The notes beneath the pieces were generated by a model. That model did not search any database and was not told the origin of the DNA. It worked only from the letters and a program-made list of their open reading frames with translations. Both the position numbers and the translations under genes were made by a program. A stretch of DNA of 64,000 nucleotides, taken from assembly GCA_016874675.1 (NCBI GenBank), contig VGTL01000004.1:4949-68948 (forward strand), written 5' to 3'. Positions 17,963-58,690 of this stretch are shown here, piece after piece; the stretch's first letter is position 1; each line of letters starts with the position of its first letter. The DNA is from Methanobacteriota archaeon (GTDB lineage: Archaea; Thermoplasmatota; DTKX01; VGTL01).

Positions 17963-18245
17963 CGCGCAAGGCGCAAGGCGCAAGGCGCGAGGCGCGAGGC
18001 GCAAGGCGCAAGGCGCAAGGGGCCGGAGCGGGGCAGCAAGGGATAATGGGAGCAAGGGAGAAAGGGAGAAAGGCAGCAAGGGGAGGGCCATCCACCCCTT
18101 CTGCCTCCGTAGGCGAGCTTCGCTCGCCTAGGCCGAGAAGGCCGCCGCAGCGGTCTTCTACGGTGCTCCCTTGCTGCCTTGCTGCCTTGCTGCCTTGCTG
18201 CCTTGCTGCCTTGCTGCCTTGCTCCCTTGCTGCCTTGCTGCCTTC
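17963..18245. repeat. Composite A+D element enclosing a structured core (18103-18166)
   Basis: GGCGCAA arm, GGCAGCAA arm, core, then (TTGCTGCC)n. Confidence 0.85.
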
Positions 18246-18344
18246 TGCCCACAGCAAATGGTAGGTACCACGCCACCATTATAAACCAGGAGCGACAGAG
18301 CCGTCCCCGATGTGCCAGGCGGGGAGGACGGCGGACGGGGTTTC

Positions 18345-27484: not shown

Positions 27485-27552
27485 GCTCCCGCGCGCCTCC
27501 CGGCCCCGGTGACCGCTGCCGCTCCGTCCGAAGTGCCCCCGGTAAATGGATG

Positions 27553-27627
27553 TAGCGGGGAGTAGATTTGAACTACTGATCTACGGGTTATGAGCCCGTC
27601 GGGATTTCCTGGCTACCCTACCCCGCT
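27553..27627 (-). tRNA. Initiator tRNA-Met (CAT)
   Basis: AGCGGGG/CCCCGCT acceptor stem with A1-U72, three G-C pairs around CTCATAA loop, T-arm AGTAG-TTCAAAT-CTACT; CCA not encoded. Confidence 0.95.
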
Positions 27628-27685
27628 GTCCTGGATTGGACCCCTAATAACCTCCACTGGGATAAAAGCCTTACTGAAAGAAGAA

Positions 27686-27918
27686 GGGGCAAGGCGCAGG
27701 GCGCAGGGCGCAAGGCGCAAGGGGCGAAGGGTCAAGTGTCGAAGGCAGAAAGGCAGCAAGGCAGAAAGGCAGAAAGGCAGCAAGGGAAGGCAGCAAGGCA
27801 GCAAGGGACGACGGCCGTCCCCTTGCTCCCTTGCTGCCTTGCTCCCTTGCTCCCTTGCTGCCTTCCCGCCCTCCTGCCCTCCGTCCTTGCGCCTTGCGCC
27901 CTGCGCCCTGCGCCTTGC
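27686..27918. repeat. Nested A(D[core]D')A' element, opposite orientation to the 23608 copy
   Basis: Core GGGACGACGGCCGTCCC at 27805-27821 is the reverse complement of 23720-23736. Confidence 0.9.
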
Positions 27919-58380: not shown

Positions 58381-58690
58381 GGCGCAAGGCGCAAGGCGCA
58401 AGGCGCAAGGCGCGAGGCGCAAGGGGCGAAGGATTAAGGGTCAAGGGTCAAGGGTCAAGGGTCAAGGGTCGAGGGTCGAGGGAGGACGGATGCCCGTCCG
58501 TCCCTTGACCCGTGCCCCTCGCCCCTTCGTCCCTTGCGCCTTGCGCCTTGCGCCCTGCCCCTTGCGCCTCCGTAGACGACCTTCGGTCGTCTCGGCCTAA
58601 AAGACCGGCCCGTGGCCGGTCTTTCACGGTCGTCCCCTGCGCCTTGCGCCTTGCGCCCTGCCCCTTGCGCCTTGCGCCCTGCGCCTTCGT
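58381..58690. repeat. Composite family A and (GGGTCAA)n element with a structured core (58566-58630)
   Basis: GGCGCAA and GGGTCAA runs, inverted arms and the second copy of the 18103 core. Confidence 0.85.

Follow-up and report, generated by a model that had tools for sequence, protein, structure and literature searches.

To our knowledge, REP-like elements are well studied in bacteria, and their archaeal equivalents and the enzymes that go with them are essentially uncharacterised. The bacterial REP, BIME and REPIN sequences are imperfect palindromes, short and rich in GC, that carry a tag at one end; most form inverted dimers, in many of which the two units differ in their stems (heterodimers), and they are species-specific and occasionally genic (PMC3733652, PMC3116915). 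Head-to-head heterodimers of GTAG-tagged palindromic units are described by Di Nocera et al. 2013 (PMC3733652) and by Bertels and Rainey 2011 (PMC3116915). For archaeal genomes, a survey from 2025 includes REP-like hairpins of a generic sort and does not characterise families (PMC12306157). In the literature searched, no description of the architecture analysed here was found. No REPIN-RAYT-like system is known to us in Archaea, as far as a non-exhaustive literature search reaches.

The element described below lies twice in an archaeal window of 64,000 nt (the whole stretch of DNA that was analysed), and its closest known match is the bacterial REP/BIME/REPIN class. It shares with REPs and BIMEs: i) short GC-rich imperfect palindromic units (26-34 nt here) that are repeated and predominantly extragenic; ii) an inverted, head-to-head pairing of two units that differ in their stems; iii) occasional clusters or chains, occasional genic copies and no obvious target duplication; iv) outer unit ends that carry a G(T/C)AG motif; and v) sequence variants that are species-specific and homogeneous within a genome. 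Unlike them, it is archaeal and present in tens of copies, not hundreds, its asymmetry stems from a single bulged base, its units abut between GG and CC, and it is nested in the arms of 7-8-mer foldback arrays. The tag also differs: in this genome the Y of GYAG is T or C about equally often, and the AG pairs with CT, leaving only Y unpaired. In contrast to REPIN-RAYT systems, there is no RAYT gene here and no transposase gene flanked by units. The element thus departs from the class in two of its defining features, having a tag that is variable and partly paired and no repeat-flanked RAYT.

Dyall-Smith et al. reportedly described MITEs/PATEs in Haloquadratum in 2011. Like the IS200/IS605-derived MITEs/PATEs of archaea and cyanobacteria, the element is a small, non-autonomous, hairpin-ended intergenic repeat in a genome with IS200/IS605-type Y1 transposases; unlike them, its ends have no sequence in common with the two IS200-type loci present. 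Rickettsia palindromic elements (RPEs) provide a parallel for a palindromic copy that is read in frame inside an essential gene (here uL3, as a loop of about 70 aa including array sequence), but RPEs are 100-150 bp long, CGTC-tagged and in many cases genic, whereas one of about 20 copies is genic here. The heptamer microsatellite foldbacks of Xanthomonas and cyanobacteria are the kind of array that hosts the element; unlike these, the element itself is a discrete two-hairpin module and no tandem repeat.

Architecture and census of the two-hairpin element

The assembly that holds the window comprises 3.36 Mb in 189 contigs with 66% GC; it is 94% complete and fragmented at repeats. The census used an nhmmer profile of the two window copies and then a covariance model, R1, made from a MAFFT alignment of 19 copies. 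An earlier note, made from the letters of the window, had recognised two segments with two hairpins each; both lie where it placed them and the hairpins read as it described. They match R1 with 82.7 bits (18103-18166; C4:23051-23114) and 83.1 bits (C4:63514-63580), at an E value of about 1e-16 for both, so that the match is not due to chance. The statement that the element is present twice is accurate for these two copies and falls well short for the genome, which holds about 20 full copies, each scoring above 73 bits.

About 30 further variant, single-hairpin and multi-hairpin loci score 20-55 bits. Among these weaker loci is a second dimer type, ACCGCAG-GCGAGCGAAGCTCGC-CTAGGCRAGGASGACCGAAGGTCSTCC-GGGGGCG. 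Single units are found as a lone hairpin 2 at a foldback apex (C90:7828-7866) and a lone hairpin 1 (C16:36034-36067), and chains of three or four hairpins also exist (C46:6369-6476; in a relative, a four-unit chain at L056:1960-2060). The element is therefore modular, occurring as monomers, dimers and chains of 3-4 units. Since several contigs end in or beside the element (C9, C10/C151, C96 and C187), the assembly breaks at the repeat and the copy numbers are lower bounds. A generic census of AG...CT hairpins was too noisy to be of use, with 252 matches versus 218 in a reversed-sequence control.

Two local arrangements were encountered in the census. Paired copies 110 nt and 194 nt apart lie within higher-order duplications of C-rich arrays at C9:846-1019 and C10:54429-54669. 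A subfamily of the form ACCCCCGTAGACGAGC...GGACCGGCCTCGGGCCGGTCC is found at C81:8576-8642 and C11:43220-43286, both copies having a left flank made of a hairpin, a "atccagctttca" box and (CACCCTG)n units.

Trimmed to their conserved ends, the window copies span 18107-18163 (57 nt) and 58570-58629 (60 nt); their parts and surroundings are collected in Table 1. Each basic unit is palindromic, 26-34 nt long and of the form CCG-(Y)-AG-stem-loop-stem-CT-CGG, and is made asymmetric by a one-base bulge or mismatch near its foot. When the halves are split between GG and CC and folded separately, unit 1 adopts (((.((((((((...))))))))))), with a one-base bulge on the 5' side, and unit 2 adopts (((((((((((((....)))))))))).))), with the bulge on the 3' side; the units are therefore mirror images. 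The element is a head-to-head dimer of such asymmetric palindromic units with different stems and no spacer at the junction, a palindrome in which CTCGG is followed directly by CCGAG, and its outer ends read G-Y-A-G and C-T-R-C.

Table 1. The two element copies of the window, the arrays around them, and the gene with a copy in its reading frame (window positions unless a contig is named)
Feature	Position	Strand	Sequence and remarks
Copy 1, unit 1	18107-18132	+	CCG-T-AGGCGAGC-TTC-GCTCGCCT-AGG; hairpin of 8-9 bp, CC/GG closure, imperfection on 5' side
Copy 1, unit 2	18133-18163	+	CCG-AGAAGGCCGC-CGCA-GCGGTCTTCT-A-CGG; hairpin of 13 bp, 1-nt bulge on 3' side, mirror image of unit 1; single G-T pair (AGAAGGCCGC versus GCGGTCTTCT)
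Copy 2, unit 1	58570-58595	+	CCG-T-AGACGACC-TTC-GGTCGTCT-CGG; hairpin of 11 bp, T bulged on 5' side
Copy 2, unit 2	58596-58629	+	CC-TA-AAAGACCGGCC-CGT-GGCCGGTCTTT-CA-CGG; 11-bp hairpin, A-C imperfection near base
Locus 1, G-rich arm of host foldback	17964-18082	+	(GCGCAAG)8, then AAGGGAGA/AAGGCAGC units (TRF)
Locus 1, foldback apex and start of C-rich arm	18083-18106	+	apex GGGGAGGGCCATCCACCCCTTC; ends ...GCCT, abutting the element
Locus 1, C-rich arm resumed	18164-18249	+	(TGCTGCCT)11 directly 3' of the element (TRF)
Locus 2, G-rich arm	58381-58482	+	(GGCGCAA)6 and (CAAGGGT)9 (TRF)
Locus 2, foldback apex	58483-58501	+	GGGAGGACGGATGCCCGTCCGTCCC, GACG...CGTC type
Locus 2, C-rich arm 5' of element	58502-58569	+	CCCTTGC/CCTTGCG units (TRF)
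Locus 2, C-rich arm 3' of element	58630-58687	+	TGCGCCT, same C-rich units as on the 5' side (TRF)
uL3 gene with insert	G000 C2:36660-38063	-	contains element copy C2:37420-37483

Both hairpins are real and are conserved as structures. In the 19 copies from this genome, 93.9% of the cells are paired, versus 35-46% when the partners are slid against each other, and eight pairs have changed on both sides. In 57 distinct copies from this genome and from metagenomes, where the metagenome set was chosen by a pattern in which hairpin 1 and the GGCC linker are fixed, so that the set is unbiased only for hairpin 2 and the ends, 96.4% of the cells are paired (30-50% overall in the slid-partner controls), 11 pairs show two-sided change in 102 cells, and none of 500 shuffles reached the covariation score. 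The two compensatory changes that had been pointed out in hairpin 1 are genuine, and the search of this and related genomes with a covariance model, which the earlier note had proposed, found the pairing of the two hairpins kept in the further copies. The apical parts of hairpin 2 are hypervariable and still palindromic.

The proposed outer CCGT/ACGG stem, closing a three-way junction, did not hold up. Its CCG and CGG are invariant in 56 of 56 variants and therefore carry no covariation, and the fourth pair is T-A in 5 of the 19 copies, T-G in 4, C-G in 2 and unpaired in 8. The minimum-energy fold of the full length consists of two separate bulged hairpins in 44 of 46 variants and includes an outer helix in the other two.

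The folds are very stable (-36 to -45 kcal/mol). As RNA, the plus strands of copies 1 and 2 fold with -38.5 and -36.3 kcal/mol (z of -4.7 and -5.7 against dinucleotide shuffles), and the minus strands do about as well, with -36.6 and -41.0 kcal/mol (z of -3.7 and -6.3). Rfam 15, applied to the whole window at gathering thresholds, returned a tRNA as its sole match, and two related loci had no Rfam match at E values up to 0.1.

Host arrays, multiplication and turnover

Nearly every spacer in the window consists of a G-rich 7-8-mer array followed by its complement. The element had been described as wrapped in repeat arms; it instead interrupts one arm of the foldback, the C-rich one, and has the same C-rich 7-8-mers in the same orientation on both flanks. 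At locus 2 the C-rich units on the two sides are the same, and the element therefore interrupts a direct array. The junction is constant: ...CCT is followed by CCG...CGG and this by TGC.... The 7-8-nt direct repeats that flank the element equal the array period; as possible target duplications they are uninformative, because any insertion into a tandem array yields them. A tRNA-Met gene (27552-27627, minus strand) lies about 55 nt from another, nested foldback array of the window (27684-27918), which is built of AAGGCGC/AAGGCAGC units and their complements.

The genome contains 732 array loci detected by TRF. Nineteen of 21 type-A copies lie in or adjoin an array, and any R1 match at all is found in 34 of the 732 arrays (about 5%). 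The element thus prefers arrays but is no required part of them. With a module in so few of the loci, the suggestion that it is the cargo or the recognition site of the repeat system is not sustained, and a role as an obligatory core of the arrays is ruled out. In relatives it occupies arrays of other unit types (TCCCGCT, CCGGYT, AGCCGGAA and TGCACCC), and a few copies there, including L040 and L037, lie outside arrays.

In the class, the 11 further genomes lack the family. No strong match and isolated weak ones were found among 400 sampled genomes of the phylum, where 13 candidates per genome were scored and weak families could be missed, and none of 40 relatives represented by species-representative genomes has the family. 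A pattern scan of metagenome contigs gave 57 loci with 48 distinct variants; several of these contigs represent the population of this genome and the others show 68-85% nucleotide identity in syntenic flanking genes. One relative carries five identical 67-nt copies, each at a different locus, and apart from a few array bases the flanks of these five loci are unrelated; a second variant is represented by four identical copies and two with one or two base differences. Identical copies at unlinked loci indicate, on sequence grounds, recent copying or homogenisation.

Orthologous spacers change their content quickly. Of 16 that were compared, at least 7 have arrays and element in the relative versus 7-88 nt here, with no room for the element; the remaining ones differ wholly in repeat content, for example two type-A copies versus one type-B copy at C21:27413. 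Copies and spacers show recent multiplication within genomes and quick turnover between related species. No transposition intermediate, no empty site within one population and no target-site signature was seen in the material compared.

A look-alike occurs once in the genome of another family of the same phylum, at L005:1501-1563 (minus strand). It is intergenic, with no arrays nearby, and reads GCCUCCGUAG-hairpin-GUCGGCCUAG-hairpin-CUCCGGUCC, having the unpaired frame of the element and unrelated stems. This sequence may be a relic or the outcome of convergence, or it may point to a host factor that recognises the frame.

DNA repeat versus structured RNA

With a probability of roughly 0.6, we prefer to read the element as a REP/BIME-like repeat that is dispersed at the DNA level, and not as an RNA gene. 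Watson-Crick pairs make up nearly the whole of the stems. G-U occupies 6 of 1262 cells in the 57-copy alignment. Among 1104 predicted pairs, 16 (less than 1.5%) are G-T, and most of these close a hairpin. A-C is the most frequent non-pair; it corresponds to G-U on the other strand and is at least as common as G-U. The two strands also fold equally well. The loop of hairpin 1 occurs in two orientations: several copies have GAA, the exact reverse complement, where others have TTC, and their stem and context are unchanged (C78, C187 and C9 versus C10 and C55). Such a "flip-flop" is expected when hairpins are extruded or templates switched in DNA, and would not result from selection on an RNA loop.

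The gene contexts, assigned with a crude GC3-based gene caller, are unbiased. Copies are found between convergent, tandem and divergent genes alike, and in tandem contexts three have the orientation of the genes and four the opposite one. Nearly all copies are intergenic. The exception, one of about 20, is C2:37420-37483 (identical with L027:1501-1564), which is read in frame (...QTLKDRRAGLLGRDERSSSTEG...) within the gene for ribosomal protein uL3, a protein whose best matches are from archaeal ribosomes. The insert amounts to about 70 residues of array units plus one full two-hairpin element; compared with an archaeal uL3 of solved structure, it falls between residues 120 and 131. At least in this orientation, the copy neither terminates nor destroys an essential mRNA.

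The Watson-Crick bias, the loop flips, the unbiased orientation, the in-frame uL3 copy, the identical copies at unlinked loci and the turnover of spacers therefore fit a DNA-level dispersed repeat better than the new ncRNA motif that had been suggested. The apparent selection on an RNA fold would be the signature of a hairpin-dependent DNA repeat, and the locus should not be counted as a new ncRNA. Spread probably depends on the folding of the units as hairpins in single-stranded DNA. The units that are copied would be those with perfect Watson-Crick stems and the CCG / GGCC / CGG frame, or else palindromes would be restored by intrastrand template switching; hairpin-dependent propagation of this kind would account for the compensatory changes that appear as "covariation". 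More speculatively, an HUH Y1 transposase might copy the units in trans, as RAYTs act on REPs. Effects on transcripts, through stable hairpins in UTRs, would be secondary.

Such effects are primary if the element is a cis-acting RNA structure under selection, whose UTR hairpins shield the ends of mRNAs, cause transcription to pause or terminate, or are bound by a protein that recognises the frame. Bacterial REPs are known to act in these ways (PMC3733652), and the stability of the folds, the co-varying stems around an invariant unpaired frame and the near confinement to intergenic DNA would all be expected. The invariant CCG / GGCC / CGG frame together with the look-alike at L005, which has that frame on different stems, could reflect recognition by a host factor at the RNA level. 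We nevertheless consider selection on a cis-acting RNA unlikely, given that copies show no orientation bias to neighbouring genes and also occupy the promoter regions of divergent genes, that G-U is nearly absent while A-C is no rarer, that loops are flipped to their reverse complement, that a copy is tolerated within the essential uL3 reading frame, and that the element is missing from orthologous spacers of relatives; neither a T-run after the window copies nor an Rfam family match supports it. An intrinsic terminator was rejected separately, the 3' flank consisting of TGC.../TCT... array units with no T-run, and the copies being unbiased in orientation and present in divergent contexts. No promoter-like or terminator-like sequence is conserved among the flanks of the copies.

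The element might instead be a passive by-product of array instability, in which fold-back synthesis or template switching makes palindromes in situ and nothing is copied or selected; the "covariation" would then arise by construction. Each hairpin does resemble a foldback in miniature, with a loop between one G-type and one C-type unit, and the hypervariable yet palindromic apices of hairpin 2, the loop flips, the near confinement of the element to arrays and the extremely fast turnover of these arrays would follow. Independent origin cannot produce five identical 67-nt copies with unrelated flanks, nor can it account for the same two-unit architecture and invariant frame in at least six array unit types and several species, or for copies outside arrays (L040, L037) and inside other repeats (C5:8286, L056, L096); we accord a purely passive origin a low probability. 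A stand-alone small RNA gene with a three-way junction is very improbable, since the complementary, invariant CCG and CGG ends and the two variants with an outer helix are set against the lack of outer-helix covariation, the frequently unpaired fourth position, the ability of each CCG/CGG to close its own unit, the existence of monomers and chains, and the absence of a conserved promoter-like or terminator-like flank, of an Rfam match and of the family from the other genomes of the class.

Candidate enzyme and neighbouring repeats

Two PF01797 loci are present in the genome, an intact gene at C71:430-822 and a frameshifted one at C5:7609-8027, and both are of the IS200/IS605 type (108 and 72 bits, versus 18-22 bits for RAYT). 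The RAYT model NF047646 has no match in the genome, from which a gene could be missed at 94% completeness and with fragmentation at repeats. A RAYT identity was rejected on this negative search and on the IS200-type nature of both Y1 genes.

The intact C71 transposase is single-copy. Its orthologues share 68-82% identity and are each present on one to a few contigs. On three of the orthologue contigs the genes upstream agree, comprising two giant genes and a small ORF. The 11 genomes of the class in which the element is missing have no such gene. This pattern resembles that of a domesticated, RAYT-like gene, and the co-occurrence in one lineage is weak evidence; the C71 Y1 transposase is thus a possible first candidate for the copying enzyme. 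No element match lies within 1.5 kb of the intact gene in the model search, and the hairpin beside it (CGTAYT-TCT-ARTACG) is unlike the element. No IS was found with the 6-nt inverted ends of the element (CCGYAG/CTRCGG), and no tnpB partner was seen. Derivation from IS ends was likewise rejected, the hairpins at both tnpA loci being unlike the units with one exception. A GGCGAG/CTCGCC stem is located 50 nt upstream of the C5 gene, the frameshifted one, and may simply be one more hairpin of the family.

An archaeal counterpart of the REPIN-RAYT system, in which the IS200-like Y1 transposase of C71 would copy in trans the bulge-tagged dimers, which land preferentially at one array phase and invade other repeats too, is a tentative proposal and on balance a doubtful one. 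The family offers a compact and well-delimited way into the repeat system of this lineage, which is so far unexplained. Its ends are sharp and its array phase is fixed; it shows recent bursts and loop flips and comes with a candidate single-copy Y1 transposase, and these properties make the copying mechanism experimentally approachable.

Other repeats were noted in the same genomes. Cassettes of small ORFs with low GC are found in this genome (G000 C105:3462-4430; C50 at about 1052, 1821, 2630, 3930 and 4740; C57:814 and 2534) and at L096:14173-16010 and L093:10458. They are separated by a conserved repeat, CATGCCTCGGATTTC.AATCCGGGGT.CGTGACTTTCG, in an integron-like layout; those of L093 and L096 include toxin-antitoxin genes, and in relatives the cassettes adjoin the syntenic Y1 transposase. 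On L096, a two-hairpin module related to the element is inserted in each of three cassette repeats.

Another mosaic structured repeat, GTTGAAACCGCAGACATTCCACCGCC ... GCCGGTGGTGCTGCGAGCCGGTCGTTTGACA, occurs at C5:8170-8495, C141:1375-1497, C121:4312-4372 and L056:1911-2212 and has no Rfam match at E values up to 0.1. Besides a minimal version of 60 nt it has versions enlarged by nested hairpins, which include a diverged element copy (C5:8286-8349). Compared with the orthologous spacer of a relative (L050:386-631), C5:5416-8725 is a 3.3-kb insertion, placed between a full element copy (C5:5350-5415) and this diverged one. Its cargo consists of the frameshifted IS200-type tnpA and cysteine-rich HNH-like ORFs, and an HNH-like ORF similar to these adjoins the intact tnpA on C71.
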